Source: a virus
Taxonomy: Duplodnaviria > Caudoviricetes
IMG/VR virus record: IMGVR_UViG_3300008107_006173
Reading direction: 5' to 3' (one strand)
DNA length: 64,000 nucleotides
Part shown: positions 9,406-34,651 of the stretch, one piece after another
Layout: every line of letters begins with the position of its first letter
Numbering within the stretch: the stretch's first letter is position 1
The notes under the pieces: generated by a model
Databases searched by the model: none
What the model was told of the DNA's origin: nothing
Seen by the model: the letters and a program-made list of their open reading frames with translations, nothing else
Translations under genes and position numbers: made by a program

Positions 9406-9617
9406 TTTATTTCATCCAGTATAATTAAATCAGCTTGTTTACCAACAATTTTGTCAGTTACTTCTTCTCGTTCTGTATTGATCCACGGCGGTAGTTTTGA
9501 ACCTGGTGCTGCAAAAGGTCTGCGATAAACTGTTTCACCGTTACGCTCAAATATCCAAGCAAAGTCGGGTTCGCCGTTAGCTAATATCCAAAATGCTTTT
9601 TCAGCCTCAGTAAACAT
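9402..9617 (-). CDS. Hypothetical protein, 71 aa
   Basis: Coupled ORF. Confidence 0.6.
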   Translation of the reverse strand: MFTEAEKAFWILANGEPDFAWIFERNGETVYRRPFAAPGSKLPPWINTEREEVTDKIVGKQADLIILDEIK

Positions 9618-10143
9618 TATTCTCTTTTAGGATAGAGATATAATAATCCTGTCCCTTATAAATGTTGTCTTGGAAATTATCTGCTGCATTGTCATCAGCT
9701 CGATCACTAACATATTTGTAGCAGATAAATTCTACATTCGCATCACGGCAGGCCTTAGCAATGGCATAGGCTTCCATATCAACTAGGTCTGCACCTTGAG
9801 CATCAGCAGGATCTGTAACAAAGTTATCACCAGTACTCACATGAAGACCATCTGTGCTAAATGTAATTGGAGCACAGGCATCAACAGCATCTTGACCCAC
9901 AATACAACCGGACACCTTAAGGTCTCGCTGGCTAAACTTGGTACACTTGAAGATGCCACCATGGTCAACCGTGATACCGCCTGCGGTGCCAAAGTTAAAT
10001 ACACGCTTAGGCTTATAACGCTCGATTAGTGTAGCTGCAATAATAGCAGCATTGACTTTACCCACACCCGTGTAGAACACACCTGGTTTGTCAACAAGCT
10101 CAGGTGCTTCACCTTTGAGTGCAATTAGTACTAGATCATTCAT
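9607..10143 (-). CDS. mtnN: MTA/SAH nucleosidase-like (PNP_UDP_1 family)
   Basis: TGVGKVNAA, NFGTAGG, STGDNF, VDMEAYAIA, YVSD motifs. Confidence 0.75.
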   Translation of the reverse strand: MNDLVLIALKGEAPELVDKPGVFYTGVGKVNAAIIAATLIERYKPKRVFNFGTAGGITVDHGGIFKCTKFSQRDLKVSGCIVGQDAVDACAPITFSTDGLHVSTGDNFVTDPADAQGADLVDMEAYAIAKACRDANVEFICYKYVSDRADDNAADNFQDNIYKGQDYYISILKENNVY

Positions 10144-11210: not shown

Positions 11211-12473
11211 TTAATTTACAAATATCCAAAGATCTTCAAAGTTTCCATCGCGCTGTTTGTGTGCCTGTCTACCGCTGGATAAACCGCTCCACCTAACCTT
11301 AAGGTGCTTTTCAAATGAGAGGTGTTTTTCTACAACAGATTTCATATCTTGGCTTATATTGTTATCTACTTTGGCGAAGTTTCTGTAATTACTGATAATA
11401 AAACCAAACTTTGCCCCAGGTTTCATAACTGCCGCACACAATTTAACAGTTTCTTCCCAATATCCTGTAAGCCAATCTGCGTAGTTTGGGAAACTTATTG
11501 TACTTTGTTCCTCACCTGGATATATTTCTAAATCAAAATAAGGAGGACAAAATAATACAGCATCTACTCGATTAGAATATTTTTCTATAAAGTTGTGCCT
11601 TGCATCTAATTGCTCACTGGGACAAAGATAAAAATCAACACTTTTGTTGCTACCAAAGAACTGACTAAATGTATCCGTTTCTTTCCACCTAGTGTATGCG
11701 CTATGCAGATGATTGGCATTATCAACCACGTTAGGTATAACATCGGTAGCCACCATATGATTAAAATTACTATTATAGAAACCAAATTGGTATGCATTCC
11801 AGCCCATGCACGGACTGAATAAAACGTCACCGGTGAATTGTGTATCTAATATACTTTTAAATGTATATGGGTTAAAGATACTCGCTTTATTAGCACCGAT
11901 CCAAAAGTCTAACCAAAACTGTCCATAGTCATCTTCTGTGTTTATGATATGATCAAAGAATGCCGGAGCACATAGACTATTTCTAATATGAAAGTTTTCA
12001 TACATAACTTTGATCAAGCCAAACACATACTGACTATCGTTAGTATATAACTTTTTAGTGTTGTAAAAATCATCAAAATTTATGTTTTTACATACTCTAC
12101 CATACTTGCTGTTAGTCATGCCCATAAATGTATCATCTTGTAAGCAATTTCCTTCTGGCAAGTCAAAATAAAATTCTAATGGATTAAGTAACTCACCATA
12201 CCTTCTATAGAACTCATATAAACTAGTTTTAGCATCAGTAACCAATATTTGATACATTTTTTTGCAATAAAGTTCCAACAGTTCTTTTCTGTTATCAGAA
12301 TCTTTTTTAGTTACTCTAGCAATAAAAGTGTCAATATCACTACGCACACCAAATGTGCCGGTGGTGTCACTAATATTAAGGACACTCAATTGCTGCCTAA
12401 AGGTAGCATAGTCCACTGACTGTAGTTGGACAGTAGACAATAAATCATCAAAGGTGTGAGTAAGTTTTTTCAT
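11211..12473 (-). CDS. SAM-dependent DNA amino-methyltransferase (N4C/N6A type)
   Basis: Motif I-like LFSPCMGW, catalytic-like FCPPYFDLEIY, VMKPGAKFGFII. Confidence 0.7.
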   Translation of the reverse strand: MKKLTHTFDDLLSTVQLQSVDYATFRQQLSVLNISDTTGTFGVRSDIDTFIARVTKKDSDNRKELLELYCKKMYQILVTDAKTSLYEFYRRYGELLNPLEFYFDLPEGNCLQDDTFMGMTNSKYGRVCKNINFDDFYNTKKLYTNDSQYVFGLIKVMYENFHIRNSLCAPAFFDHIINTEDDYGQFWLDFWIGANKASIFNPYTFKSILDTQFTGDVLFSPCMGWNAYQFGFYNSNFNHMVATDVIPNVVDNANHLHSAYTRWKETDTFSQFFGSNKSVDFYLCPSEQLDARHNFIEKYSNRVDAVLFCPPYFDLEIYPGEEQSTISFPNYADWLTGYWEETVKLCAAVMKPGAKFGFIISNYRNFAKVDNNISQDMKSVVEKHLSFEKHLKVRWSGLSSGRQAHKQRDGNFEDLWIFVN

Positions 12474-12481
12474 ACACGTAT

Positions 12482-13222
12482 TTATTCAGTTTCGTAAACA
12501 ATAAACTCTTTAGGCCACTTTTTATAAATGTGAAACTGTGGACTATGATAAAGCTCACCTTCACCGGCACCCTTCATTTGTAGGCTAAAAATCTTTTCTT
12601 CATTTGGTCCCACACACCAAATGTTATAGTTATGGCCTCGTTTACTTTTGCTCATTGTCCAAACACAGTGATCAGTGATCCATTTAATATATTTGTAAAT
12701 ATCAACGATGATTATCTTATCTGTTTTTTTGTTTCGCCAAATTAAAAAATCTACTACATAATCATTATTTAGAGTTTGTAATAGTAGCTTAGGTAGAATT
12801 CCCTCTTTATTCTTTTTATTGAGCCAAGCGAGTACTTCTTCCCAGCCTGTAATATTATGAGATCCTAGTCGCTGCCGCCGGAGTTCTAGATTTTCATTTA
12901 GGGTTAAACCACTTTTCCAATCATTAAACTTTTGTATATCACAGGTACCAAACCATTTTTCAAATTTTTGAAAAATGATTTCAGGGGCATTTAAATAATT
13001 ACAAAATGCTTTGAGCGTTGTTGCATGTACTTGTGTATTGCTGCCACTGCCATTTTTAATACTAAAATAGATAGGATTTTCTGCAATACCAACAAGATCC
13101 ACTTTGGTTCCGGTACCTCCCAAAGTTTCAAACTGTTTAATAAAAAAGATTCCTTTGAGCAACTTTTGTAGGTTATCGCTACTTTCGTAATCTCTTCCTT
13201 CATAATATTCTTTACTAGCCAT
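12482..13222 (-). CDS. Putative PD-(D/E)xK restriction-type endonuclease
   Basis: GTKVD..(x10)..FSIK, SNTQVH, FSLQMKG; adjacent to the MTase; start moved to MASKE. Confidence 0.5.
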   Translation of the reverse strand: MASKEYYEGRDYESSDNLQKLLKGIFFIKQFETLGGTGTKVDLVGIAENPIYFSIKNGSGSNTQVHATTLKAFCNYLNAPEIIFQKFEKWFGTCDIQKFNDWKSGLTLNENLELRRQRLGSHNITGWEEVLAWLNKKNKEGILPKLLLQTLNNDYVVDFLIWRNKKTDKIIIVDIYKYIKWITDHCVWTMSKSKRGHNYNIWCVGPNEEKIFSLQMKGAGEGELYHSPQFHIYKKWPKEFIVYETE

Positions 13223-13249
13223 AGAGATCCTACTGTTAATTCTATACAC

Positions 13250-14021: not shown

Positions 14022-14534
14022 TTACTTCAAAAACATCTGTAGTGTATATCTAGTATTTGTTCCTGTAACAGGATTTGTTTTGTGGGCAGCACCTTCAACT
14101 ATTGAATCAAAATATGCATAAACACCGCAATTAACTTTTTGTACAACTGCTACTTCGGCATCGTTGTCTAACCAAACAAATTCCCCACCCTCGGCATCAT
14201 CGCTTAAAAAAACAGTCAGCGAAGCCTTGCATGTATCTGTATGTAACGGAATACTGCAATCAGCAGGCATTTTTTGTACTGCAAACTGAGCAAACTTTAA
14301 CCGCTCGTCTCGACAGAATGGGAGATTTTGATTTGATGCTAGTGCTAATATTAATGCCATTCTGTCTCCGTCGGTAACAGTTTCAGAAAATGCTTCTGGT
14401 AGGGTGCAATTAGCTGTTGAAATTTCCGGCCACACTTCATAACTACTATTGTCGGTATTCTTTATCTGACAAAACCTGCTTTGAAGCATGTGCAAAATTC
14501 TATCATTGAAAACATTTTCTGTGTAGGTAAACAT
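14022..14534 (-). CDS. 2OG-Fe(II) oxygenase
   Basis: PLHTD (HxD), GGEF, AHKTNPV..RYTL (distal His and Arg). Confidence 0.75.
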   Translation of the reverse strand: MFTYTENVFNDRILHMLQSRFCQIKNTDNSSYEVWPEISTANCTLPEAFSETVTDGDRMALILALASNQNLPFCRDERLKFAQFAVQKMPADCSIPLHTDTCKASLTVFLSDDAEGGEFVWLDNDAEVAVVQKVNCGVYAYFDSIVEGAAHKTNPVTGTNTRYTLQMFLK

Positions 14535-15457
14535 TATTTTCCTATAGCATTTCCGTAAATGTGTACATGCACTCGACTTGTGTAGTTATACCCACGCTGT
14601 ATTGCTTCGTCTGCAATCATTGCTTCTGTTACTTTGAGGCCTTCCAAAGTGCCACCGACACCCATAATATAAACAGGAAAATTACAACCAGCTTGCCTAA
14701 AGCGATCAACATTTTCTTCTACTTCCTTCCAACTGGCTTCGCTGCCATTAACAACGAATTTTAGTTGTCCTCTGCTTGATAGTTTAGCATAGCTACCTAC
14801 TACATCGGGGCAAATTGCTCTCTTAGCTCTTTCTCCGGCTGTACTCCATAGCTTAGGACTGATACTCCAAAACCATTCTGTTGTACCATTTCCGTCAGGT
14901 ACAATGCCACCAAACTCGCTGCTAAACAAGAACTTTTCAGTAAGCCATTTTTCAAATTCTGCTGTTAGTGGTTGTGTACCATTAGTTTCAACTGTGACAT
15001 TGCGCGGCGCATTGCCCCTCTTAGCAAATTCGTTGATGATGGAGATCATGCCTTCCTGCGACTTTTTAAGCATAGGCTCACCACCAGTGAACACCATGTG
15101 TGTCCATTGCTTGCTTTTAGGATGTTGAAAACTACCACCCGGCAATAGTGCAGTTAAATTATCAACGGCTTCTTCAACTGTTTTGTCAGTCATTAAGTGT
15201 CTGAAACGCTTGCTCCATGTATAGCTACTGTCGCAACCCTTTTCAAACACAGGTAGATCTTCAACACGATGAATACCGCTGATATCAACTGTTTCGTAAG
15301 GCAGTTCGTAGGTCTTTGGATCGGTTGGATCCTTTTGTCCAAATCCATTACATTGGAGATTGCACATAAAGAATCGCATCCAAAGACTGGGAATACCTAC
15401 ATAAGCACCTTCGCCCTGTGCGCTATAGAATATTTCACTGTACTTGAGGTTTGACAT
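14534..15457 (-). CDS. queE: QueE-like radical SAM (7-carboxy-7-deazaguanine synthase)
   Basis: EIFYSAQGEG, MRFFMCNLQC, CDSSY, VFTGGEP, VETNGT, SISPKL, RVHVHIYG; the third Cys of CxxxCxxC is not at the canonical position. Confidence 0.8.
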   Translation of the reverse strand: MSNLKYSEIFYSAQGEGAYVGIPSLWMRFFMCNLQCNGFGQKDPTDPKTYELPYETVDISGIHRVEDLPVFEKGCDSSYTWSKRFRHLMTDKTVEEAVDNLTALLPGGSFQHPKSKQWTHMVFTGGEPMLKKSQEGMISIINEFAKRGNAPRNVTVETNGTQPLTAEFEKWLTEKFLFSSEFGGIVPDGNGTTEWFWSISPKLWSTAGERAKRAICPDVVGSYAKLSSRGQLKFVVNGSEASWKEVEENVDRFRQAGCNFPVYIMGVGGTLEGLKVTEAMIADEAIQRGYNYTSRVHVHIYGNAIGK

Positions 15458-15989
15458 ATTTCAATAACCTTTCGAGATCAAGGCTCATTTTAAAGTTTGT
15501 ATAATCAATTTCTCTACCATGTTTCTTGTGCATCTTAGTAAGGGCATTAAACACAATGGAGTGTACCTCTGAGTTTTCAAAGCCCCTCTCGCCCTTTTCT
15601 ACATCTTCGAGACAATCCACAATGATCAGTTCTAAACCATATCTAAACAAGTCGTCAATGGTTTCGCAATCATGGAGAATTGATTTAGCATAAGATATAA
15701 TTAGAAAATAGATTCTATCGGTGATAGCAGTTGCTTGAACATCTAAATCAACATCAGTTGAATTAGGGTCATCAGCAAAGTCTAATTCTAGTTTATCTTT
15801 CTTACTAGGCTTTGCCAAGTCAATAAAAGCATCTATGCACTCAAAAATTTCATCTACTGTTATAGGATATCGTTGGGTTACCCATGTAATATCCTTGTAC
15901 TCAGCAATAGCATCACAAACATCGATGATTTGTACACCCGTTCTGTCTAATACTAAAATGTTTCGAGGTCCTCGGTTTGAAATGGTCAT
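15435..15989 (-). CDS. Hypothetical protein, N-terminus DUF433-like
   Basis: RTGVQIIDVCDAI..ITWVTQRYPITVDEIFECI resembles DUF433. Confidence 0.55.
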   Translation of the reverse strand: MTISNRGPRNILVLDRTGVQIIDVCDAIAEYKDITWVTQRYPITVDEIFECIDAFIDLAKPSKKDKLELDFADDPNSTDVDLDVQATAITDRIYFLIISYAKSILHDCETIDDLFRYGLELIIVDCLEDVEKGERGFENSEVHSIVFNALTKMHKKHGREIDYTNFKMSLDLERLLKYVKPQVQ

Positions 15990-16210
15990 CGATATTTTCC
16001 TAGAAGCTTTGGCCCTGTGCTTTGAAATTCTAACCCGCTCATTGAGCCAATATAGATTTTGTATCGTTCGTTAAATTGCAGATTAACTCGTACTGTGTTC
16101 AATGCCACAGTTAGATACTTTCCTTCTACAAAAGTAATTACATCTGCCTCAACGGTATTACCATTGTCGATGCACTCAACAACCGCTGTGCGATCAAATG
16201 AGCTGTACAT
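15986..16210 (-). CDS. Hypothetical protein, 74 aa
   Basis: Coupled to folE. Confidence 0.65.
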   Translation of the reverse strand: MYSSFDRTAVVECIDNGNTVEADVITFVEGKYLTVALNTVRVNLQFNERYKIYIGSMSGLEFQSTGPKLLGKYR

Positions 16211-16891
16211 TTACTTACAGCCTTTGTTTACAATGTTCATAAACTCTGCACGAACCGCAGGGTCGCTCTTAAAGCAACCGCCCAGCTTGCTGGTAACTGT
16301 GCTAGAGCCAACATCTTCAACTCCTCTACTTTTTACGCAATAGTGTTGTGCGTCAATAACCACTGCTACATTTTCTGTTTCTAGAATGTAGCTTAGTGCA
16401 TGATAAACCTGTTCAGTTAGGCGCTCTTGAATCTGGGGACGCTTGCTGAAGTATTCAACGATACGATTGATCTTTGAAAGACCTAGTACCTTCTGTTTGG
16501 GGATATAACCTACTGTTGCAAGTCCATCGATAATAACAAAATGATGTTCGCAGTTGCTCTGTACATTAACATTGCGCTCTACAACCATCTCATCGTATTT
16601 CATTTTATTGTCAACGGTGGTACACTTGGGGAAAGCATCGTAGTCTAGCCCCCAAAAGATTTCGTTGACATACATCTTAGCAACACGCTTTGGTGTGTCC
16701 ATGAGACTGTCGTCTGATAGATCGAGACCCATGGTCTTCATAATTTCGGTAAAGTGACGCTCGATAATTTCAATCTTATCTTTGCGGTCAACACCGTTAT
16801 CTACTGTAGGGGTTTCAACACCCATCTGTACTAGGTGTTCGTGAACGCGACTGCCTAAATCAGGGTCGCACTTAGTTTTATTGAATGACAT
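16211..16891 (-). CDS. folE: GTP cyclohydrolase I
   Basis: [42 protein letters not shown]. Confidence 0.95.
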
Positions 16892-16949
16892 ATACTTCTC
16901 CTTCCTTACACGGATATAATTTAAGTTTGCTACCTTTGTGTAGCATAAT

Positions 16950-16957
16950 TATTTATC
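16950..16957 (-). promoter_or_regulatory. Late-type promoter motif GATAAATA upstream of folE
   Basis: Same octamer recurs upstream of several genes. Confidence 0.5.
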
Positions 16958-16990
16958 GAACTGCTTTTACAAGCTCTAGATTTCTTGTTT

Positions 16991-17458
16991 TTATCTTCGT
17001 TTCCACCAGTCTTCCCAGGGGAACACAAACCATTGGTCTTCTATGCTTCTAGATATTTCTCTGCCAGCATAGTCTATCTTAACCTTTGATTCAATATTCT
17101 CAATCGCCACAGCAACATAAAAGTCAACAAACTCTTGTGCTCGTATGACTTCAATCATCTCTGAAAGAGTTTTGCCCGAGTCGCAAATATCATCAACTAG
17201 GAACACAACATGCCCCCAGTATTTGTCTAAGATAGCTGTTAAAGATTGAATGTCCTTGTCCTCACCATCTCTGGTTTGCCATACTACAGGCACAAACGGA
17301 ACATCAAAATAGTTACTTAGTTTAATGCCAAAGTCAGCACCTCCTCGCATAGGCGCGATGATTACTTCGGGTACTACTCCGTCTTTGGCAACTTGACGAA
17401 TAACTTCACTATAGTAGTCATTCATTTCTTGGTGTGTTATATATTCGTATTTGGGCAT
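16991..17458 (-). CDS. Type I phosphoribosyltransferase (Gpt/XGPRT-like)
   Basis: APMRGG, PRPP loop VFLVDDICDSGKTL, C-terminal WFVFPWE. Confidence 0.85.
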   Translation of the reverse strand: MPKYEYITHQEMNDYYSEVIRQVAKDGVVPEVIIAPMRGGADFGIKLSNYFDVPFVPVVWQTRDGEDKDIQSLTAILDKYWGHVVFLVDDICDSGKTLSEMIEVIRAQEFVDFYVAVAIENIESKVKIDYAGREISRSIEDQWFVFPWEDWWKRR

Positions 17459-17493
17459 AATTTAATAATAGCTTATCTTTGGTCTAAAGTCAA

Positions 17494-18474
17494 TTACTTT
17501 TTGCGTTTCTTTTCCCATGCTACTGCATGAGCAACAATATCTTCTAAACCGTAAACTGGTTCCCAACCAAGCACTTCCTTGGCTTTTGAAATGTCAGCCC
17601 ACGTCTTTGCGGGATCACCCTGTCTTGCATTTTCTAAAAACATGCTAATAGTTTTACCGGTTTCTTTTTCTACTGCGTTGATAACTTCCTTAACTGAATA
17701 GGGCTTACCAGCGCCCAAGTTAAATGCAGCACTTTCGTTACCATCATCTAGATAGTTCATTGCATTAATATGTGCTCTAGCAATATCGTAAACATGCGTA
17801 TAATCGCGTTCTGCTGTACCATCCTTAGTTGGATAGTCGGTGCCAAATACAGGCACAGTTTCATCTGCTAACGCTCGCTGCACTACAATAGGAACTAGGT
17901 GCCCCGGAGGATCCTGTGTGTATCCGCACTGACTGTCTGGATCTGCACCTGCTGCATTAAAATATCTCAATGATACAAACTTCATATTACTGTATGCTTG
18001 CTCGTAGTCCTTGAGGATCATTTCAATCATTGTCTTACTGCGAGCATATGGGCTAATAGGCAGCATCGGATCTGTTTCTTTATTTGGATTGCCGCTAGTG
18101 CCACCATAGATTGAGCTTGAACTGCTGAAGATAAAGTTCTTTACACCTGCTGCTACAGCATGATTAAGCAGATTAATAGTATTAGCAACATTATTAGTGT
18201 AGTATCCTGCAGGGTCAATAAAACTTTCAGTTACCTGATGAGTTGCAGCAAGATGAATAATAGTGTCGGGTTTAGTTAGTTGTAGAATGCCCTTGAGTTG
18301 ATGATTGTCAATATCAAATGGATACTGATGTACCCCGGGTATTTCGCATTTCTTTCTATCAACATTAATAACATTATGCCCTGCTTGAACTAGCAGCCTA
18401 CAAGTAAGGTTACCGATAAAGCCACTGCCTCCGGTTACTAATACTGTCTTTGGTTCTCGTTCAATGTTTTTCAT
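17494..18474 (-). CDS. galE: UDP-glucose 4-epimerase
   Basis: GGSGFIG, FSSSSS, YARSK (YxxxK), LRYFNAAGA, DGTAERDYTHV. Confidence 0.85.
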   Translation of the reverse strand: MKNIEREPKTVLVTGGSGFIGNLTCRLLVQAGHNVINVDRKKCEIPGVHQYPFDIDNHQLKGILQLTKPDTIIHLAATHQVTESFIDPAGYYTNNVANTINLLNHAVAAGVKNFIFSSSSSIYGGTSGNPNKETDPMLPISPYARSKTMIEMILKDYEQAYSNMKFVSLRYFNAAGADPDSQCGYTQDPPGHLVPIVVQRALADETVPVFGTDYPTKDGTAERDYTHVYDIARAHINAMNYLDDGNESAAFNLGAGKPYSVKEVINAVEKETGKTISMFLENARQGDPAKTWADISKAKEVLGWEPVYGLEDIVAHAVAWEKKRKK

Positions 18475-19556
18475 GATATGTGTTTCCTAATTGTTTCGTA
18501 TAAAATCTTGCCGCTGAAGAAATCTTGTTGTAATATGTTTACTTGTGCTTCTATTTGTTCCAGTCTAGCATCATAAGAATCTATGTGTTGCGCGATCAGC
18601 TGACACAATTGCTGGCGATTCGCCTCATATGCAGCATATGATTCAGTCCATTCACTGGGATATTTAAATGTGTCAAGCGCCATTTCACTGTAGCTAAGAC
18701 GATCTGGTACAAGTGGTATCGCACCAACTGCTGCACCTTCATACCAACTGATACCTAATGTTTCTTGTAGATTAGCACTGAATACCATCTTAGCCTCTCC
18801 CAAAAGATCATGATATTCTTGCTTGGTTAGATTTCGCTCTTGGCAAACAACAAAATCGTATTGCGGTAGATGCTTGGCTAAGTCTTTAAAAATATCTAGT
18901 TGTTTTTCAGGAGCGATGCGATGCGGGAACAATATCAAATTACGCTTGCTTTTATTTTTGTGACCATACATCATATGCTCTAGGTATTCCATGGGCCATC
19001 CACATCGAACAATCTTACCCTCTTGACCATATCTTTGGCGAACAGTTTCTGGATCTATCCCTAGTAGGTTTAAGCTAAACAAATCAATATGAAAATCAGT
19101 GGCAAAGTAGTTATGATCGATTGCATAAAAAAGCGCCTTTTCAGTATGCCTTACCCACGGAGCATTGCCTATAAGCCGACCCAAGAAGTCTGCAGGGTCG
19201 TAACTGCCAGCATGCCACATACCACCAATTATAATCTTAATACCTAGCAATTCTGCCATGTACTTTAGTTGTAGGATTGTTGGGTTCCATGCATCAGTAT
19301 AAAGGAAATAGTCACCGTCTTTGATTTTACCAGCAGCAAACATTTGCGAAATAGTTTTTAGTTGTTCGCTTTTCCAATAGTTAGTACCACTAAAGTTTAG
19401 AAATGCTCCCGGGGTTGTATCCTGCGGAGCATCACTTGGACCTTCAATTACTTCAACAGGAAGTCCTGCCATCAGCATCTGTGACGGCAGGAACTGCTTC
19501 CATTGTTTAGTATATCTAGTCTCTACCGGTTCTAGTTCAACGATATAAACTGTCAT
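18471..19556 (-). CDS. GT-B (GT4-like) glycosyltransferase
   Basis: FPHRIAPEKQ and QETLGISWYEGAAVGAIPLV (EX7E motif). Confidence 0.75.
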   Translation of the reverse strand: MTVYIVELEPVETRYTKQWKQFLPSQMLMAGLPVEVIEGPSDAPQDTTPGAFLNFSGTNYWKSEQLKTISQMFAAGKIKDGDYFLYTDAWNPTILQLKYMAELLGIKIIIGGMWHAGSYDPADFLGRLIGNAPWVRHTEKALFYAIDHNYFATDFHIDLFSLNLLGIDPETVRQRYGQEGKIVRCGWPMEYLEHMMYGHKNKSKRNLILFPHRIAPEKQLDIFKDLAKHLPQYDFVVCQERNLTKQEYHDLLGEAKMVFSANLQETLGISWYEGAAVGAIPLVPDRLSYSEMALDTFKYPSEWTESYAAYEANRQQLCQLIAQHIDSYDARLEQIEAQVNILQQDFFSGKILYETIRKHIS

Positions 19557-19559
19557 GTG

Positions 19560-20234
19560 TTATTTTCTATTACCAAAAAGTTGTAGCAAGTTTAAGAACA
19601 GGTTAATAAAGTCTAGATAAAGAGTTAATGCACCTGTAACTTCTGCATTACCTCTGTTATCAAACATAATCATTTCTCTGATCTTTTGTGTATCATAGGC
19701 TGTCAAACCTAAGAAAATAATTACAGCAAGAGCACTGATTACCATTTGCATCAGTGTACTACCAATAAAGATATTGATAATACTTGCAATAATAATACCG
19801 ATTAGACCTACAAACATAAATGACCCAACACTGGTTAGATCCTTTTTAGTTGTATAGCCGTATAGTGTCATTGCTAGGAACAAACATGCTGCTCCTAAAA
19901 ATGCCTGTACAATACTTAGTGCAGTATATACAGCAAAGATAGTAGCAAAGCTCAGACCCATTAGTGCAGCAAAACCGTGCAGCATTAGTTGTGCAGTCTG
20001 TTTCGATGCTGTGGGCATCTTAAATGAAATAAAGAATACTGCGGCCAGCGGCGCAAAGATCACAATCCACTTGGTAATACCTGTAAAGAAGAAATTGAGT
20101 AATTCAGGACTATTACCAACAAAATAGCTTACTAGCATTGAATTAACTACAGCTAGAAACATATTTTGATAAACACGAGTCATTGCTGCGTTTACTTTAA
20201 CTGCATCAGCTCTTACTGATTCTCTATAAAACAT
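19560..20234 (-). CDS. Bax inhibitor-1/YccA family membrane protein
   Basis: About 7 TM segments, AYDTQKI, ALTLYLDFINLF. Confidence 0.9.
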   Translation of the reverse strand: MFYRESVRADAVKVNAAMTRVYQNMFLAVVNSMLVSYFVGNSPELLNFFFTGITKWIVIFAPLAAVFFISFKMPTASKQTAQLMLHGFAALMGLSFATIFAVYTALSIVQAFLGAACLFLAMTLYGYTTKKDLTSVGSFMFVGLIGIIIASIINIFIGSTLMQMVISALAVIIFLGLTAYDTQKIREMIMFDNRGNAEVTGALTLYLDFINLFLNLLQLFGNRK

Positions 20235-20243
20235 TTTAATCTC

Positions 20244-21365
20244 CTATTCCCAACTAAATGGGCCTTTCTTTTTTACACCAAAGTTCTTATAAGTTAAAAT
20301 CTTTTCTAAATCATTTCTATCCTTTAGTGATAAAAATTCATTTGCAAAGTGCAGTTCGACTTCGTTCTGTAGTGCTAAATTTAGTATCTTATTAGCAATT
20401 ATAGCATCGTCCGGTAAGGAATGCAAGCTAAAAAGTACAATAGCGTCAGGCTTTTGAAAAATATAATCTTGTAAAATGGGTAACCATGGTAAGAATTCAT
20501 TTTCAAATTGTACACCAGTGTGATTAATTTTGTGTTTAGCACAGTACGAATCAATAGTACCTCGCTGTATATACATAGGTATGTTAGAATCAAATTCTGT
20601 ATTGTTGCTGGTATATGCAACTACAACCTTACCTGTATAATCTAGCGGTGTATCCTGTGCGTAATCCCCGGGTAGTCTAAAGAAACCGCCCGGCTGTCTT
20701 CGCCAATATTCTTCACCTTCGATTAGTATATGCCAGTCAATACTCATTCTCGTATAGCCTGTTTCATTATTAACATTGCCATGAATGTGTTCTTGATGAA
20801 ACAGATGTGCTTGCCCGGGTATTATTTCTACCGGCTTAGAATATTTTACGCATTCTTCTTCAAATTTAGAAAGAGGCCATTGTTCAGCTATAACAGTTTT
20901 CGTAATGCGTTGACTATTATCAGTATCCATAATCCACATACTGTTAGTACCTTCGCACTTGGTGAGAGCCATCCAGATGGTCCGCTGGCCTCTTCCATTT
21001 GAATAGAAGATTCCCTGATGAAAGGGTAATCTTCTAGCTTTTTTTGCTTGATTAGGAAGTACTACATTTAGTGTAGCATTTCTTTTTATTAGATACTTCT
21101 TGTTACTGATTAGATTTTTTGCATATTCTTCAGCGAAAGAATCAAACCTCTGCATGAATTCTTTTCGGCCAAATGCTGCCTGAACATATGCTTGTATTTT
21201 CACAAGCTCAGGAACATCAACGACCTCATGAATTGTTTCCAAACTTTTTACATCTGGGCGGATCTCATTAATGATATCTAGCACCCATTTGTTCCATGGA
21301 TACTTCTCTAGATTGTAATCTAGGGTTTTATTTTCCCATGCAGAGGTTGTATCTAAATCAAACAT
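20244..21365 (-). CDS. StrG-like 2OG-Fe(II) oxygenase fused to a C-terminal resolvase-like/LIC12192-like domain
   Basis: LPFHQG..TIWMALT, HIHGNVNNETGYTRMSID; C-domain IQRGTIDSYC..DAIVLFSLHSLP..HFANE. Confidence 0.6.
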   Translation of the reverse strand: MFDLDTTSAWENKTLDYNLEKYPWNKWVLDIINEIRPDVKSLETIHEVVDVPELVKIQAYVQAAFGRKEFMQRFDSFAEEYAKNLISNKKYLIKRNATLNVVLPNQAKKARRLPFHQGIFYSNGRGQRTIWMALTKCEGTNSMWIMDTDNSQRITKTVIAEQWPLSKFEEECVKYSKPVEIIPGQAHLFHQEHIHGNVNNETGYTRMSIDWHILIEGEEYWRRQPGGFFRLPGDYAQDTPLDYTGKVVVAYTSNNTEFDSNIPMYIQRGTIDSYCAKHKINHTGVQFENEFLPWLPILQDYIFQKPDAIVLFSLHSLPDDAIIANKILNLALQNEVELHFANEFLSLKDRNDLEKILTYKNFGVKKKGPFSWE

Positions 21366-21367
21366 GA

Positions 21368-21547
21368 TTATAGCGAGTTCTTCTTGTCCTGAATCTCAGC
21401 ACGACGAACCTTAGTTAACTTACCTAGTTCGCCTAGCGCCTTACGAGCACGAGCAGCCGCGGCCTTTACGCCCTTAACTTCAAACGCTTCTGATTCCTTT
21501 AGGTATTCATCGAATACTGCCTTAATCTTTAGATGTGTCTCGGTCAT
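21368..21547 (-). CDS. Histone H1-like (Hc1-type) basic protein, 59 aa; not in the ORF track
   Basis: Hand translation MTETHLKIKAVFDEYLKESEAFEVKGVKAAAARARKALGELGKLTKVRRAEIQDKKNSL; SD AGGAG. Confidence 0.75.
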   Translation of the reverse strand: MTETHLKIKAVFDEYLKESEAFEVKGVKAAAARARKALGELGKLTKVRRAEIQDKKNSL

Positions 21548-21559
21548 ATGTTTCTCCTG

Positions 21560-21970
21560 TTATCTAAAATATGTTGGACCGTCTACTTGCCAATCATCTG
21601 ATGGCTTTGGAAAGTCAATTTCGCAACCGTTTTCATTATCTTCGGCTACGCTGATTTTTAGCCAACGATCAGGGAATCTACCCCTAATTGTTTTAGCTAA
21701 ATCTTCTGCGATCATTTCGCAGCTCTTGTGATTCAGTTCTAGTACACCCTGACTGTACTGACGTTCCATCCAACGCTTGAACTGAATAAATTCAATGTCT
21801 CGATCATCGTGAAATACTTCGATCCAGACTTTGAAATGGAAAATGTGCCTGTGCGGCACACCTAGAAAACTTACATCGTCCCAGCCGCCTGTGGCTAACT
21901 TAGGATCAGTATCGGCACCCGGATACATATGGATGCCTTCTTTTTGAAATGTGACCCAAATAGTTTTCAT
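21560..21970 (-). CDS. QueD-like T-fold protein with LxxxHRHxF motif (DpdL-like candidate)
   Basis: GIHMY, FLGVPHRHIFHF, DRDIEF, SCEMIAE, VAEDNENG; lacks the canonical QueD CxxxHGH. Confidence 0.7.
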   Translation of the reverse strand: MKTIWVTFQKEGIHMYPGADTDPKLATGGWDDVSFLGVPHRHIFHFKVWIEVFHDDRDIEFIQFKRWMERQYSQGVLELNHKSCEMIAEDLAKTIRGRFPDRWLKISVAEDNENGCEIDFPKPSDDWQVDGPTYFR

Positions 21971-22170
21971 TCTTTGTCCTTAGTCTCTTTTTCTCTTGCA
22001 CGCCTTAACAGTTCTTCGTGGATTTCGTAATCGTAGTATTTGCCTGTTTCTTTTCTTAGACGATTGCGTTCAGAAATGTATTTGTTTGATTCAATGATAA
22101 ACCAAGTTAGAATAGAAAAGAAAATAAATGCGGCTGTGCCTACCATTATATTAATAATAAGTTCAATCAT
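21967..22170 (-). CDS. Small membrane-anchored protein, 67 aa
   Basis: N-terminal hydrophobic helix. Confidence 0.6.
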   Translation of the reverse strand: MIELIINIMVGTAAFIFFSILTWFIIESNKYISERNRLRKETGKYYDYEIHEELLRRAREKETKDKE

Positions 22171-22349
22171 TTCTTATACTCCTTTTCTATCTGTTCTAAT
22201 TCTTCTGGAAACTTAGCGCCGCACTTTCTAACAAATTTGATAAATTTGAGAAATACTTCTTGCAGATCCTGCTCAGTTTCTAGACTTTCAACTTCTATAG
22301 TTGTACTAACAATAACTCCATCATCATCACATTCTAATTTTATATTCAT
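22167..22349 (-). CDS. Hypothetical protein, 60 aa
   Basis: Follows the promoter at 22357-22384. Confidence 0.55.
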   Translation of the reverse strand: MNIKLECDDDGVIVSTTIEVESLETEQDLQEVFLKFIKFVRKCGAKFPEELEQIEKEYKK

Positions 22350-22356
22350 ATATTTT

Positions 22357-22384
22357 ATAGTATTGCACTTTGGATAAAGGTCAA
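22357..22384 (-). promoter_or_regulatory. sigma70-like promoter TTGACC-N16-TACTAT
   Basis: Read directly from the sequence. Confidence 0.5.
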
Positions 22385-22899
22385 GTAATTACTTCATCCT
22401 TAGTGTATTTAGACCAATCCGTAAATTGTTCTCTGTTTTGTAGGCTGTGTAAGCTGTGACACCAAACACCCGGATTAGATTCTTTAAATCCTTTGTCGTC
22501 AATCTTAACTGTAGCATTATAATTGTATAATCTAATATAGGGTAGCTTAACACTAATCATGGGGATAAAGTTATCATATTCATTCCAACCATTATCGTGG
22601 AACCACGGATGATTAGCATATTTGCTGTCAAAATCTAATGTAACCCAAATACCATCTTTTAGTAATCCGGTAACTAACTTATCCCAATTCTCCCATTCTT
22701 TCTCATTGGGCGCAAAACTTTGATTAGCACCTAGATAGATATGTGGACATTTATTGTTTAATGCACGAGCTAAAATTTCTTCCTTGGGCTGTAGTCCTAC
22801 AACAAACAGAGTTCTCTGTCCATATGCAGGTGTATGCTCTACTTCAGTTCCAATAAAGAACTTTGTGCTATCGTCATGACCGTCTCTATTCTTCACCAA
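22381..22899 (-). CDS. Hypothetical protein coupled to the TGT-like gene, 172 aa
   Basis: 14-nt overlap with the TGT-like gene; FIGTEVEHT, HIYLGAN. Confidence 0.75.
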   Translation of the reverse strand: MVKNRDGHDDSTKFFIGTEVEHTPAYGQRTLFVVGLQPKEEILARALNNKCPHIYLGANQSFAPNEKEWENWDKLVTGLLKDGIWVTLDFDSKYANHPWFHDNGWNEYDNFIPMISVKLPYIRLYNYNATVKIDDKGFKESNPGVWCHSLHSLQNREQFTDWSKYTKDEVIT

Positions 22900-24442
22900 A
22901 GCCTCCCATCATTGCAGGATCAAGCATTTCTTCTTCTCTGCTAACAGTCTCGTCGTGTACTGCGGTTGACGCTTCTTCAAAGAAACTTGTATCGAGATGT
23001 GTTTCAGTAGCATAGCTACCAAAGCTAATTTCTTCTAGGAACTTGCTGTACTTGTCAATAAGTTCGTATGGGTTAGGACATGCTGGATCTAGCACTTCTT
23101 GTACGAAACTATCAAAGTATACCACACTATATGGAATATATGGGCTAAACTCGTTTGTTCCTTTATTGGTCTTGTCATTGATCCAATCACTGTAATGTAC
23201 ATTAGCGCGATACTTTTCCATATCAGCTAAACGATTAGCTTCCTGAACCGCAGTGATATGATTGTACACGCTATGCGCCATATAGTAAAGGTAGCTCTGT
23301 GTATCCCAGCTTGTGCTTTCTTTAGTTTTTGCTTTATCGTTACGATCTAAATCACCCTCTTCCATGCAGCAGATATCACCTGCAACAAGGCGTTCCATAA
23401 TCGGACCATTGAACGGCATAGGCAATGTACTGCCCTTGAGCTTCTGATTATCAAATGCTCGGTTCATAAAGTAACCAAAACGCTTGGGCGAGAAGTAGTT
23501 GTAGCTGTAGCACTGACCGTATGCAGTATTCACAAACGGACTAGCTGCGTCAAAACTAATTGTAATATTAGGACTATCATGCTTACGAAGCATACGCTGA
23601 ATGCTGGTAAGGTAGCAAGCCCAATTCAATTTACCTGTACCAAGGAAGTGAATCCAACCCTTACCTTCTAAGAGACCATCTTCTCGTAACTTAAGAATAC
23701 GCTTAAGGGCAATGGGCATATTACGCATGTTAATACCTGCGAAAGCATAGCCTTCTAGTGTGCGATCAGCATCACCATAATTGGCAGCAACAAACTTTGG
23801 ATCACTAAAATGTTTTACACTTTCATACCAATCATCTGCACTTTTTTGATCGGTACCTGAAAGAACATTAAGAAACTTAGTTTTTCCTGGTACACGATTG
23901 CGTACAAAATAATCTAAATTCAACATACTAATATCAATGGTATCTTGAATCTTTGTAAGACCGGTTTTCTTATTGTATGGTGGAACGGCAGCAAAGCCTG
24001 GAATATCCAATGTCATTGCCCAGTCTGCTGTGTGTTCAAGCCAGCGTAGAATCTTTTCGCAAAGTTCTAAGCGACTTGGATCATTAGGATCTTTAGCGTT
24101 AGACCAATCAAGTTTTAGCACACCACTAGCAACCTGAAATCCACCGGAGTCGCCTAAGATAGTTGTTACATTTCGATCGCGCAATTGAACCATTGGCTCT
24201 TCGGTATCGCTGCGAGCAGGATCTAAGTGTGCGTGACCTGCCGAGTATAGTCCGTATGGATAATGGTAATAGGACTGATCCTTTTTAAGGAAATCAAGTC
24301 CTGCATTACCTAATTCAAACCCAGCTGGTGTACGCCAGTCACTAGGATTAGCTAGTGTCTTTTGTAGTTGCTTGGTATAGAAACTGCTGATAGCAGGCAA
24401 ATATACCGCATAATCACTCTGACGCTTACCTAAATCTTTCAT
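22886..24442 (-). CDS. TGT/DpdA-like guanine transglycosylase-fold protein, 518 aa
   Basis: ILGDSGGFQ, AMTLDIP, IHFLGTG, ISFDAASP, late HSV; canonical CxCxxC zinc site not evident; located in the folE/queE/queD-like cluster. Confidence 0.8.
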   Translation of the reverse strand: MKDLGKRQSDYAVYLPAISSFYTKQLQKTLANPSDWRTPAGFELGNAGLDFLKKDQSYYHYPYGLYSAGHAHLDPARSDTEEPMVQLRDRNVTTILGDSGGFQVASGVLKLDWSNAKDPNDPSRLELCEKILRWLEHTADWAMTLDIPGFAAVPPYNKKTGLTKIQDTIDISMLNLDYFVRNRVPGKTKFLNVLSGTDQKSADDWYESVKHFSDPKFVAANYGDADRTLEGYAFAGINMRNMPIALKRILKLREDGLLEGKGWIHFLGTGKLNWACYLTSIQRMLRKHDSPNITISFDAASPFVNTAYGQCYSYNYFSPKRFGYFMNRAFDNQKLKGSTLPMPFNGPIMERLVAGDICCMEEGDLDRNDKAKTKESTSWDTQSYLYYMAHSVYNHITAVQEANRLADMEKYRANVHYSDWINDKTNKGTNEFSPYIPYSVVYFDSFVQEVLDPACPNPYELIDKYSKFLEEISFGSYATETHLDTSFFEEASTAVHDETVSREEEMLDPAMMGGFGEE

Positions 24443-25204: not shown

Positions 25205-25405
25205 TTATTCGCGCTCCATTGCTGCTGCTTCTTTGATTAGTTCTACAAGTTCTTCAATTGAATTACAGGTAATTTTTGCTGTAGCCCAATCATCCTTTTT
25301 ATTCTGTCCGCCAATTTCAAGCATGAAGCCATTGTCGTACATGTTAACACTAAAGTTGTCATTTACTTTTGCAAGTTTGTCTGCAATCTTAGTTACTTTT
25401 GCCAT
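25205..25405 (-). CDS. Hypothetical protein, 66 aa
   Basis: SD AGGAGA, follows a promoter. Confidence 0.7.
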   Translation of the reverse strand: MAKVTKIADKLAKVNDNFSVNMYDNGFMLEIGGQNKKDDWATAKITCNSIEELVELIKEAAAMERE

Positions 25406-28231: not shown

Positions 28232-28909
28232 TTATGTTATTTCTTTATCTATGTAGCTGATGGCCCGCTCGGCCCAACTAACGCTTTGACTAATAGTTAG
28301 ATGACAACTTCTATCTGCAACAGGAATCTGTCGTTCTATTATACCATCGTGGAGCGCATCAAATTTTGATTTAGGAAGGAAATCTTTTTCCTCCATTGCT
28401 GATGCTGGCCCATCAACAATATACTTTAACCTATGAACATAATTGGTATTACGCCAAATTGGAAATATATTATTGAATATAATAAAAGGCTTGTTTACTG
28501 ACTTGCATAGATTAATAATGTGTTCTATATATACTTCATTCTTTTTTAAATTAATAGGTATGCTACTTAAAAAAGGTAACATATCATTGGTGATGTACTT
28601 TTTTCTATATAACGCTGTAAGAGTATTACTTTCTATGCTTTCACGCATTAGATTATATGTAGCAGGCACTAACTCACTATTATCTCTATGATCTATTTCT
28701 AAGCGGTCTATAGTAGTTAAACATACAACTAGTAATTTGTAATCCAACTGACTAACAGCATGTTCAACTTGACACATAATATCAAAATTACTTACTGCGT
28801 CTTTGCCTAAACTAACATAAGAATCCTTGTATTTTTTTGAAACTTGATGCATCCAGTTCCAAGGATAATCGTCAGGTTGGCAGAAACTATCTCCACAAAA
28901 AACAATCAT
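28232..28909 (-). CDS. SGNH/GDSL-like hydrolase-fold protein
   Basis: N-terminal VFCGDSF, G..SN, C-terminal DRSCHL. Confidence 0.55.
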   Translation of the reverse strand: MIVFCGDSFCQPDDYPWNWMHQVSKKYKDSYVSLGKDAVSNFDIMCQVEHAVSQLDYKLLVVCLTTIDRLEIDHRDNSELVPATYNLMRESIESNTLTALYRKKYITNDMLPFLSSIPINLKKNEVYIEHIINLCKSVNKPFIIFNNIFPIWRNTNYVHRLKYIVDGPASAMEEKDFLPKSKFDALHDGIIERQIPVADRSCHLTISQSVSWAERAISYIDKEIT

Positions 28910-29460
28910 TGGTATGCCGGACCAAGAATCAGAGTAACTAAACTTTCGCGCTGACCAGCTGTGATGTTTGTTACTTCGTGGTGTACAATACTTGGAAAAA
29001 TTATAACGTCACCTAAATTTAATTTAAATGCTTCTCTTGGTGTTATTGAATCTAAGTTCAACTGGTTAACATCATTGGTATAATGAAAAACAATATCTCC
29101 ACCCTGATAAGAGTTTGAGTCATTAAGGCCTACCACAACTGTTAATTTTCTAGCAGGACTTTTAAACAAATTAGTTGTGCAAACGTCGTTATGTAAAACT
29201 GCACCATGGCCGCTATGATAAATCCCATAGGTAAACGACTCAAACACTATCGGGTCAAAGATTTCTAAATTAAAATGATTTTTTGATTCTTTTATAATTT
29301 TAGATAATTTTTTAATAATGAACCCTGGTATAGTGCTAACATTAGCATGTTTACGAACAAAAGTATCGTCATGCTGGTCAACAGCAGAACCAACACTCTT
29401 TTTAACTAGCAGTATCTCATCAGCTGAAAATACCGAATCAAATTTCGCTACCAGGGACAT
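28906..29460 (-). CDS. 2OG-Fe(II) oxygenase (P4H/PKHD-like)
   Basis: LHND, RKLTVVVGLN, YQGGD, FPSIVHHEVT..GQRESLV. Confidence 0.8.
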   Translation of the reverse strand: MSLVAKFDSVFSADEILLVKKSVGSAVDQHDDTFVRKHANVSTIPGFIIKKLSKIIKESKNHFNLEIFDPIVFESFTYGIYHSGHGAVLHNDVCTTNLFKSPARKLTVVVGLNDSNSYQGGDIVFHYTNDVNQLNLDSITPREAFKLNLGDVIIFPSIVHHEVTNITAGQRESLVTLILGPAYQ

Positions 29461-29735: not shown

Positions 29736-30437
29736 TTACCTCTTCTGTGTTGTAGTGTTAGTATATATTTCTAGCTGATCATTCCCGCTAGGAATAGTGG
29801 CGTTGCTAAAATTAACCATTTCTTGATAATCTTTGAATTTGGTATATCCAAAGCAATTAAAATCTTCACCTGCAATCTCGTTTACAAAATTTATTATTGT
29901 GTCATCGTAGTATTTCAAAACTGACTTAATTGTCTCTTGTTCTGATACTACAGATGTGTATCTAGTACCTAGACCAGTTCTATCTATTCTAGAAAAACTT
30001 TTCAAGTCAACTCTGTAAACTGCTTTAACGTCTTCGACTAAATTTTCAAATTTAATTATGTGAAGTCCCCCAGTGATGCCATCAATCCAATTTGTGCATG
30101 GAGAGGTTATCCATGTTGGTCGAAGTTGAATGTTTAACATGAATTTTTTAAATTGTGGAATTGTAAATGCTTCAGGACTTTTATTTTCTTGGGCAGAACA
30201 AAATTGATAAAACAGTGACACATATCGTGTGTACGGACATCTCACACTTACCGCACACTCAGTATCCATCGGAAGATTATGAGATTCAAATGTTTGATGT
30301 AATTTTGTAATATCTAATAAAAGATCTTCAAGTTTTAAATCTTTTAATGTAATGATTTTACTTAGTACCAGCGCATTAAAAATAGACGATCCGCCAGTTT
30401 TAGGTGGATGTAGAAAAAGGGGTCCGTTAAAATGCAT
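29736..30437 (-). CDS. Sulfotransferase family protein
   Basis: PAPS-binding FLHPPKTGGSS, VRCPYTRYVSLF, IKFENL. Confidence 0.8.
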   Translation of the reverse strand: MHFNGPLFLHPPKTGGSSIFNALVLSKIITLKDLKLEDLLLDITKLHQTFESHNLPMDTECAVSVRCPYTRYVSLFYQFCSAQENKSPEAFTIPQFKKFMLNIQLRPTWITSPCTNWIDGITGGLHIIKFENLVEDVKAVYRVDLKSFSRIDRTGLGTRYTSVVSEQETIKSVLKYYDDTIINFVNEIAGEDFNCFGYTKFKDYQEMVNFSNATIPSGNDQLEIYTNTTTQKR

Positions 30438-30462: not shown

Positions 30463-31023
30463 TCAATATGCCCAGCTTACTAAACTATGACGCACACCTC
30501 GAGTAACCACCCCAACTTTATGGCGATAGGTACTTGGAAAAATAATACAAGTACCGGGACTAGGTCTATCAAACACTTTGTTTTCAAAACATAGTTGGCC
30601 GCCTTCGTAGTTGTTATCTAACAGTATAGACATGGATAATTGACGAACATAGTCGATGCTGCTATAGCTGACAGCATCGATGTGCCAATCGAAGTGTCCT
30701 AAATCCTGTTCTGTATAACGCATGATACTAACAGTGGTTCTATCCCTAGAGTATTCTTTATTGAATAACTGTTTAGCCTCATCGAATAATGTATGAACTT
30801 GTTCAAACACATCTGAATGCTCATTCACAGACAGCCGCGCTTCTCGACATCTACGGGTGTTTGATATCGTAACAGTACCCTTGTCGTCAACTACAACTTC
30901 AGCTTTTTTAAAATGTATGTCGCTATTAAGGAGAAGTTCGATCATAGAAGAATCGAGAGCATTCTCTTTAACAAAGACATGCATGCCTTGCGGTAGACAT
31001 GCTTTTTCTTCATTGACAATCAT
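30463..31023 (-). CDS. 2OG-Fe(II) oxygenase (PKHD-like)
   Basis: FDWHID, RQLSMSILL, YEGG, FPSTYRHKV..GVRHSLVSW. Confidence 0.85.
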   Translation of the reverse strand: MIVNEEKACLPQGMHVFVKENALDSSMIELLLNSDIHFKKAEVVVDDKGTVTISNTRRCREARLSVNEHSDVFEQVHTLFDEAKQLFNKEYSRDRTTVSIMRYTEQDLGHFDWHIDAVSYSSIDYVRQLSMSILLDNNYEGGQLCFENKVFDRPSPGTCIIFPSTYRHKVGVVTRGVRHSLVSWAY

Positions 31024-34602: not shown

Positions 34603-34651
34603 CCATTCCGTGAACTTTAGAAAAGTACTAGAAAAAGGGTTAAATAACTGT

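Follow-up and report, generated by a model that had tools for sequence, protein, structure and literature searches.

The 64,000-nucleotide stretch of phage DNA analysed here (Caudoviricetes; IMG/VR virus record IMGVR_UViG_3300008107_006173; the whole stretch is called the window below) carries a 7-deazaguanine DNA-modification locus in which a glycosyltransferase of the GT4 family (GT) stands together with DpdL, FolE, QueE and a DpdA-like protein predicted to have the fold of tRNA-guanine transglycosylase (TGT). A pathway on the 7-carboxy-7-deazaguanine (CDG) branch, with base exchange by a DpdA-type enzyme, is well supported. Judging from its conserved linkage, the GT probably belongs to this pathway and is not a bystander. 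The simplest reading of the locus would be virion DNA whose deazapurine bears a hexose; we give this slightly less than an even chance. In a broader form, we tentatively propose that a GT4 glycosyltransferase combined with a TGT-fold transglycosylase constitutes an undescribed class of system that places a sugar-bearing 7-deazaguanine in DNA, is widespread in aquatic jumbo and T4-like phages, and serves as self-marking in bacterial islands.

The glycosyltransferase and its linkage to dpdL and dpdA

The AlphaFold2 model of the GT (predicted local distance difference test (pLDDT) 87.5, predicted TM-score 0.87) displays a GT-B fold with two Rossmann domains. Foldseek returned over 400 matches in the PDB (E ≤ 1e-3), led by GT-B enzymes of the GT4 and glycogen-synthase types; MshA, BshA, GlgM and glycogen synthase match at about 1e-8, PimB' is also among the matches, and the nearest solved folds include the small-molecule GT4 enzymes MshA, BshA and LmbT. 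The EX7E motif is intact (E265-x7-E273) and, together with R213 and K218, is invariant in 18 GT sequences down to 27% identity; we take these residues to bind the nucleotide sugar, as is general for GT4 enzymes, a family that is typically retaining. At the level of sequence profiles the protein is less conspicuous, with 20.4 bits against Pfam Glycos_transf_1 (gathering cut-off 26.4) and nothing useful from a profile search of PDB sequences with the GT alignment.

Searches for dpdL and the GT covered 50,697 phage records. dpdL was found in 28 of them (about 12 lineages) and the GT in 23; 18 of these 23 also carry dpdL, and the two genes are always within about 4 kb of each other. In six or more cultured lineages that are unrelated (PA5oct, ACP17, Phosso, BUDD/X1, BCSR5 and BUCT-ZZ01) the GT has dpdL, a DpdA-type gene or both as a neighbour, and the GT-bearing phages differ in their replication modules and include two DpdA types. 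The identity to the GT of the window is 50% for Phosso, 44% for PA5oct and 37% for ACP17. GT and dpdL are adjacent in Phosso, and the GT lies between dpdA and dpdL in the PA5oct group. In ACP17 the order is a homologue of the 172-residue protein encoded next to dpdA in the window, then dpdA, GT, dpdL and queE; in the T4-like cyanophage BUCT-ZZ01 (Synechococcus) it is queE, a phosphoribosyltransferase (PRTase) gene, queD, folE, a second GT4-like gene, dpdA, dpdL and GT. The GT search gave no match in the phiST group, RHph_I1_18 and Ahp1, all of which have dpdL. The second GT4-like protein of BUCT-ZZ01 has 447 residues, flanks dpdA (L039:7364-8707) and has homologues of 31–32% identity in bacterial islands (L136:12278-13513, L137); it suggests that some systems may attach more than a single sugar.

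Two sets of IMG/VR loci were compared. The first contains 30 loci with a DpdA-like protein 63–99% identical to that of the window, and these keep the order DpdA, 172-residue open reading frame (ORF), DpdL, GT, GalE, PRTase, FolE, 184-residue ORF and QueE. The wider set comprises 80 dpdL loci, 47 of which have at least 7 kb downstream of dpdL; all counts given here use these 47. The GT family is present in 44 of them (35 at ≥45% identity), with a median gap of 242 nt between dpdL and GT. FolE and QueE occur in 44 loci each and the PRTase in 41. A preliminary description of the window had suggested checking whether GT, galE and the PRTase gene are conserved together with dpdA; this turned out to be so for GT and PRTase, and GalE directly after the GT is confined to the subclade of the window (12 of 47 loci). 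GalE, which scores 344.9 bits with TIGR01179 (trusted cut-off 262.3), follows the GT directly in the subclade of the window and is absent from the PA5oct and ACP17 loci. The PRTase is 38% identical to an annotated xanthine-guanine PRTase adjoining queE in BUCT-ZZ01.

In one subclade (L014, L017-L024; for example L021:14011-14991) it is only 27–33% identical to that of the window, with DpdA, DpdL and GalE at 50–80%. The GT changes, by evolution or replacement, at a much higher rate than the genes beside it, which is what an arms-race determinant should show. Metagenomes yielded over 8000 homologues of the GT.

The association extends to bacteria. A scan of bacterial genomes located GT homologues (37–51% identity) directly beside DpdA-like genes with intact motifs in the alphaproteobacterial Pelagibacterium, Azospirillum, Rhizobiaceae, Thalassobius, Pseudooctadecabacter and Sulfitobacter, the DpdA-like gene being present in two of 401 genomes of that bacterial class. 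Most of these pairs come without dpdL, folE and queE. The island of Pseudooctadecabacter jejudonensis (L136:7404-14679) encodes a double C5-methylase, DUF3800, a near-threshold Vut_1 protein (vitamin-uptake transporter family), an unknown 585-residue ORF, a second GT4 (weak GT4-conflict match) and an integrase; that of Pelagibacterium sp. (L130:2290-11488) encodes a patatin, a resolvase and an OLD-family nuclease. In both islands the DSGGFQ and FDS motifs are intact, and dpdL, folE and queE are lacking. The context of the islands is of a mobile or defence type, and they may represent an undescribed bacterial DNA-modification or defence module; the PADLOC models of known defence systems matched neither the island proteins nor the DpdA-like protein of the window. 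The pairing of GT and DpdA in bacteria is frequent and not obligatory.

The DpdA-like protein, DpdL and the CDG branch

The DpdA-like protein of 518 residues has no Pfam (including the TGT model PF01702), PHROG or NCBIfam match, and no TGT came up when PDB sequences were searched with a profile made from the DpdA alignment. Its AlphaFold2 model has a pLDDT of 62 overall and of 77–96 in the core (residues 110–300). When the confident core was compared with the PDB by Foldseek, 14 of the 15 best matches were TGT or QTRT chains and the remaining one was DpdA (7ui4), with E-values from 7e-3 to 2e-2. Two aspartates, D98 (DSGGFQ) and D298 (SFDAAS), do not vary among 10 homologues from phages and 7 from bacteria and are candidate catalytic residues. 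In a profile comparison their motifs align with DSGGLQ and ISYDS of the ACP17-type DpdA, and they would be equivalent to D102 and D280 of TGT. By hhalign the protein matches the DpdA group of ACP17, BUDD and BUCT-ZZ01 with a probability of 96.7 and an E-value of 4e-10; the match to the DpdA3 of phiST (259 residues) is marginal, with a probability of 63.5 over 100 columns and a twofold difference in length, and we do not class the protein as DpdA3. The modelled fold would place the protein in a divergent clade of the TGT/DpdA superfamily that is recognisable only by fold and motifs.

The 172-residue ORF is kept after dpdA throughout the clade of the window in the IMG/VR loci; in ACP17 a homologue immediately precedes dpdA, and in PA5oct it is found at another place in the genome. 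More than 6000 metagenomic homologues were found, none with a Pfam domain, and the ESM Atlas and homologue searches yielded no function for it, with weak features of a TIM barrel or glycoside hydrolase below a reliable score.

The motif LxxxHRHxF separates DpdL, a QueD-like T-fold protein put forward as a CDG decarboxylase, from QueD, which has CxxxHGH; the decarboxylase activity is a proposal in that work too (Cui et al. 2023, PMC10516641). The 136-residue protein of the window contains LGVPHRHIF, lacks the QueD motif, and is 57% identical to the DpdL of ACP17 and 32% to that of phiST. In an alignment with DpdL from phiST, ACP17 and PA5oct, its residues L36, H40, R41, H42, F44, H14, H54, E60, E85 and E110 are conserved. 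The gene had been labelled "QueD/DpdL-like" in the preliminary description; the DpdL half of that label holds and the QueD half does not. With this gene being DpdL, the window is left without a 6-carboxytetrahydropterin (CPH4) synthase. A search of the window for QueD, by the motif CxxxH[GR]H and by BLAST with the QueD of ACP17 and phiST, found none. In PA5oct, two PTPS/QueD genes lie at a distance of about 55 kb from the locus, and in ACP17 QueD is inside the cluster. The acidic 184-residue ORF was considered as a substitute for QueD and no support was found for that role; it has positional homologues across the subclade (25–41% identity) and no Pfam, PHROG or NCBIfam match.

The QueE-like protein matches phrog_2076 ("QueE-like radical SAM") over its full length at 2.6e-48; it is far below the cut-offs of five NCBIfam QueE models, and Pfam Radical_SAM is sub-threshold. 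QueC was found neither in Pfam scans of about 60 ORFs of the window nor, as the PP-loop motif SGGxDS, in its six reading frames, nor in complete PA5oct, complete ACP17 or one 250-kb relative. One relative has a 340-residue ORF whose N-terminal third alone resembles QueC weakly (22.9 bits); we take it to be another PP-loop enzyme. Without QueC, the pathway would be confined to the CDG branch. The gene identities, the DpdL signature and the absence of QueC from the window and from these relatives support the earlier view of a QueC-less 7-deazaguanine DNA-modification locus. That view had also included the absence of QueF and ArcS from the window; neither family turned up in the general Pfam scans, in which they were not searched for by name.

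Proposed modification and alternative explanations

In the mechanism that we propose, FolE and QueE would make CDG from GTP, with QueD coming from outside the window or from the host. DpdL would process CDG, by decarboxylation to 7-deazaguanine if the published proposal is followed. The divergent TGT-fold DpdA would then replace guanine in DNA by the deazaguanine base, probably with the help of the overlapping 172-residue partner, and the GT would add a sugar to the deazapurine, either to the free base before insertion or to the DNA afterwards. In the subclade of the window the sugar is probably of the galactose type, fed by the overlapping GalE, and the Gpt-like PRTase would most simply salvage the guanine released by DpdA. 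What the analysis shows are gene identities, folds, motifs and conserved linkage; each chemical step, the atom that accepts the sugar, and whether glycosylation comes before or after insertion are inferred. Candidates for the acceptor would be the exocyclic N2, the carboxylate of CDG or a different product of DpdL. N2-glycosylated natural products derived from 7-cyano-7-deazaguanine (preQ0) exist in huimycin and dapiramicin.

The preliminary description had envisaged hydroxylation of the base by the oxygenases of the locus followed by glycosylation. The 373-residue oxygenase fusion (p373) matches TIGR04324 (sporadic carbohydrate cluster 2-oxoglutarate (2OG) oxygenase) at 2.1e-20 and TIGR04323 (LIC12192 family) at 5.6e-8, both below the cut-offs; it occurs only in two near-identical strains (L003 and L029) and in none of the 47 dpdL loci. 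The 170-residue oxygenase-like protein (PF13640, 22 bits against a cut-off of 27) is limited to close relatives and one of the 47 loci. The idea that an oxygenase always follows queE was refuted, the slot being filled by methyltransferase, PsiE or unknown ORFs in other relatives. The Bax1-I protein (BI-1/YccA-like) is likewise found in close relatives only and in two of the 47 loci. Both oxygenases and Bax1-I are strain-specific cargo. Since the oxygenases are not conserved and the window holds at least eight such genes, the hydroxylation step is unsupported.

Several observations weigh against a sugar on the deazapurine. 7-Deazaguanine is without an obvious hydroxyl acceptor, and there is no conserved oxygenase to make one. 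The DNA of phiST, the only DpdL phage with measured DNA, carries 2′-deoxy-7-deazaguanosine (dDG) (Cui et al. 2023, PMC10516641), and phiST has no GT; some phages can thus do with plain dDG as their final product. The DpdA model is of modest quality, with Foldseek E-values of only about 1e-2, the 47 IMG/VR loci are not independent lineages, and one Azospirillum copy of the DpdA-like gene has no GT nearby. The isoelectric points of the GT family (4.6–6.3) reflect an acidity that is not typical for a DNA-binding enzyme, but they are uninformative on this point, the DpdA-like protein being acidic as well.

Among the alternatives, the one that survives best is that the virion DNA carries plain dDG (or its 7-carboxy form, dCDG), as in phiST, and that GT and GalE serve envelope glycans or virion proteins and sit here as accessory genes. 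phiST manages with DpdL, FolE, QueD, QueE and DpdA; the locus collects cargo such as Bax1-I, the p373 fusion and the variable slot after queE; GalE is limited to one subclade; and in phages, glycan clusters commonly include GT4 genes (PMC7824862). We nevertheless regard this explanation as unlikely. The GT is found again and again beside dpdL and dpdA in phages that are unrelated and differ in replication modules and DpdA types, and this linkage is also seen in bacterial islands without phage context, and the cargo of the same locus is not so conserved.

It is less likely still that the GT is needed by the pathway and leaves no sugar in virion DNA, whether through a transient glycosylated intermediate by which the free base is activated or shielded, or as a structural or accessory partner for insertion by DpdA. 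We are aware of no TGT-type base exchange that works through a transient glycosyl carrier. The invariant EX7E, R and K argue for real sugar transfer, and the coupling to GalE suggests stoichiometric use of a sugar donor. What speaks for such a role is that the tightest linkage in bacteria is that of GT with DpdA-like genes, without dpdL, folE and queE, that the nearest folds include small-molecule GT4 enzymes and the GT family is acidic, and that dpdL and dpdA of ACP17 alone gave no dDG in E. coli, for which the authors suspected missing enzymes (PMC10516641). The GT and the 172-residue homologue flanking dpdA and dpdL in ACP17 are obvious candidates for these, and the failed attempt speaks for our main reading as well.

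A pre-replicative route, in which the PRTase and phosphoribosyl pyrophosphate make a deazapurine nucleotide that is reduced, phosphorylated and incorporated by the adjacent polB, with a minor or repair role for DpdA, appears improbable: the catalytic motifs of DpdA are strictly conserved, close to the locus we recognised no enzyme of the kind of MazG or a dGTPase that would deplete dGTP, the ACP17, BUDD and BCSR5 loci examined gave no PRTase match, and guanine salvage explains the PRTase equally well. The frequency of the PRTase among the dpdL loci, its position next to queE in BUCT-ZZ01 and the location of the locus directly after polB and the clamp would fit such a route, as would the complete replacement of G in DpdA3 phages and the use of PRTases to build deazapurine nucleotides in the biosynthesis of toyocamycin and tubercidin.

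The known natural sugar-bearing DNA bases are, to our knowledge, all pyrimidines, and the known deazaguanine modifications of DNA carry only small groups at C7. If a sugar-bearing deazaguanine were present in these phages, it would be the first glycosylated purine in DNA and a new nucleic-acid chemistry, and would provide a new phage escape from restriction and CRISPR nucleases. It would also account for the G modification in the therapy-relevant phage PA5oct and for the failed reconstitution of dDG from ACP17 genes, and the enzymes could be useful in labelling DNA. As the module is present in several cultured phages, the proposal is directly testable. The preliminary description knew of no sugar-bearing deazapurine in DNA, and full-text searches, which did not cover Iyer et al. 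2013, likewise turned up neither a glycosylated deazaguanine in DNA nor a link between a GT and DpdA.

Locus layout, relatives and comparison with known systems

The genes of the locus are listed in Table 1. All ten genes named in the preliminary description are at the places given there and on the minus strand; its list is correct as far as it goes and had omitted Bax1-I, the conserved 184-residue ORF and the small ORFs. The polymerase and the putative clamp that it had set directly upstream were likewise recognised, the former by its Pfam domains and the latter by position and the annotation in Phosso.

Table 1. Genes of the modification locus and of the block upstream of it, in the order of transcription, with the oxygenase-type genes of the window in the last line
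Feature	Position	Strand	Basis or remark
polB, family B DNA polymerase, 895 residues	25481-28168	-	PF00136, PF03104
66-residue ORF	25205-25405	-	no family match
Clamp-like protein, 252 residues	24444-25202	-	position; counterpart in Phosso annotated as sliding clamp
DpdA-like protein, 518 residues	22886-24442	-	DSGGFQ, predicted TGT fold
172-residue ORF, TTG start	22381-22899	-	14-nt overlap with the end of dpdA
Two small ORFs	21967-22349	-	no family match
DpdL, 136 residues	21560-21970	-	LGVPHRHIF fits LxxxHRHxF
2OG-Fe(II) oxygenase fusion (StrG-like), 373 residues	20244-21365	-	TIGR04324 and TIGR04323, both sub-threshold
Bax1-I family membrane protein	19560-20234	-	PF01027, 4.5e-55
GT, 361 residues	18471-19556	-	GT-B/GT4 fold
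GalE, UDP-glucose 4-epimerase	17494-18474	-	TIGR01179, 345 bits; start overlaps GT stop by 4 nt
PRTase, 155 residues, Gpt/HGPRT-like type I	16991-17458	-	PF00156, 7e-16; phrog_8995
FolE, GTP cyclohydrolase I	16211-16891	-	PF01227, 1.8e-62
74-residue ORF	15986-16210	-	no family match
Acidic 184-residue ORF, between folE and queE	15435-15989	-	no family match
QueE-like radical-SAM protein, divergent	14534-15457	-	phrog_2076, 2.6e-48
2OG-Fe(II)-oxygenase-like protein, 170 residues	14022-14534	-	PF13640, sub-threshold
At least eight 2OG-oxygenase-type genes in the 64-kb window	include 14022-14534, 20244-21365, 28906-29460, 30463-31023, 34610-35239, 62442-62951, 62948-63439

The locus is embedded in a block of replication genes, and the order polB, ORF, clamp-like gene upstream of it matches that of PA5oct and Phosso. 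In PA5oct polB is split in two by a gene for a Hef-like homing endonuclease (L001:8611-13837), and in the window it is a single ORF. A scan for promoters and terminators did no better than chance in the case of the promoters.

Outside the locus, the 2OG genes at 62.4–63.4 kb stand in tandem, and two further ones flank a sulfotransferase-like gene (29736-30437). Two ORFs, of 420 and 255 residues (11211-13249, minus strand), between the p171/p96 genes and RNase H, have no counterpart in related loci; the former has a weak match to a DNA-methyltransferase PHROG, and the region looks like a strain-specific insertion. A 178-residue PNP_UDP_1 gene of the nucleoside phosphorylase superfamily (9607-10143, minus strand) adjoins RNase H; the related loci reaching beyond RNase H did not show it. 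The window also contains DnaJ, PhoH, two overlapping ORFs of about 485 residues and a ClpP protease (47967-48791, 53065-53832, 53829-56694 and 63442-63960).

To judge by gene order and protein identity, the DNA of the window is that of a freshwater relative of the Pseudomonas jumbo phage PA5oct, the PA5oct group being its nearest cultured relatives; besides the GT (EST35_0317 in PA5oct, see above), the identity to PA5oct is 50% for DpdA (EST35_0316), 60% for DpdL and 35% for QueE. Megablast of the locus against phage genomes gave no match. A 280-kb contig carries a GT copy identical to that of the window, and the phage was detected in freshwater and lake metagenomes of 18 studies. For PA5oct a deazaguanine system was predicted earlier (PMC7824862). 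Its DNA is resistant to restriction enzymes with GA or GG in their site, from which a modified G was inferred, its chemical nature not being identified; modification-dependent END nucleases target this DNA, and one of them targeted only the G-modified phages tested (PMC12191111).

PA5oct shares with the window the order polB, clamp-like gene, DpdA, GT, DpdL, PRTase, QueE, p171 and RNase H and the lack of QueC, and differs in having no GalE, FolE, 184-residue ORF, Bax1-I or either oxygenase in its locus. Acidovorax phage ACP17, Xanthomonas phage BUDD and BUCT-ZZ01 also have a gene of the GT361 family adjoining dpdL and dpdA, with FolE and QueE near; in addition, ACP17 shares the 172-residue homologue and BUCT-ZZ01 the PRTase. 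Unlike the window, these T4-like or otherwise unrelated phages have their own QueD and a DpdA type of about 420–440 residues that is related at the profile level only.

The Cellulophaga phage phiST resembles the window in its QueC-less FolE and QueE, its DpdL with LxxxHRHxF, its TGT-related transglycosylase and the position of these genes beside the replicative polymerase. However, it has no GT, GalE or PRTase, and its cluster contains a MazG-like NTP pyrophosphohydrolase and its own QueD. Its DpdA3 is only about half as long as the DpdA-like protein of the window and aligns with it only marginally, and the DpdL proteins are as distant as given above.

The α- and β-glucosyltransferases of T4 and other phage DNA glycosyltransferases are similar to the GT of the window in their GT-B fold, their link to DNA modification and their fast diversification, though the T4 enzymes were not among its best 50 Foldseek matches. 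The T4-type enzymes act on the hydroxyl of 5-hydroxymethylcytosine or 5-hydroxymethyluracil, whereas in the window no hydroxymethylase is linked to the GT, which is paired with an enzyme that exchanges a purine base. A TGT-fold DpdA that inserts a 7-deazaguanine also belongs to the bacterial Dpd restriction-modification system (dpdA-K; dPreQ0/dADG), and the bacterial GT pairs described here lie in mobile or defence-type islands. In contrast to that system, there are no DpdB or DpdC partners here, the PADLOC models match neither the DpdA-like protein of the window nor the island proteins, and the partner of DpdA is a GT4 glycosyltransferase.

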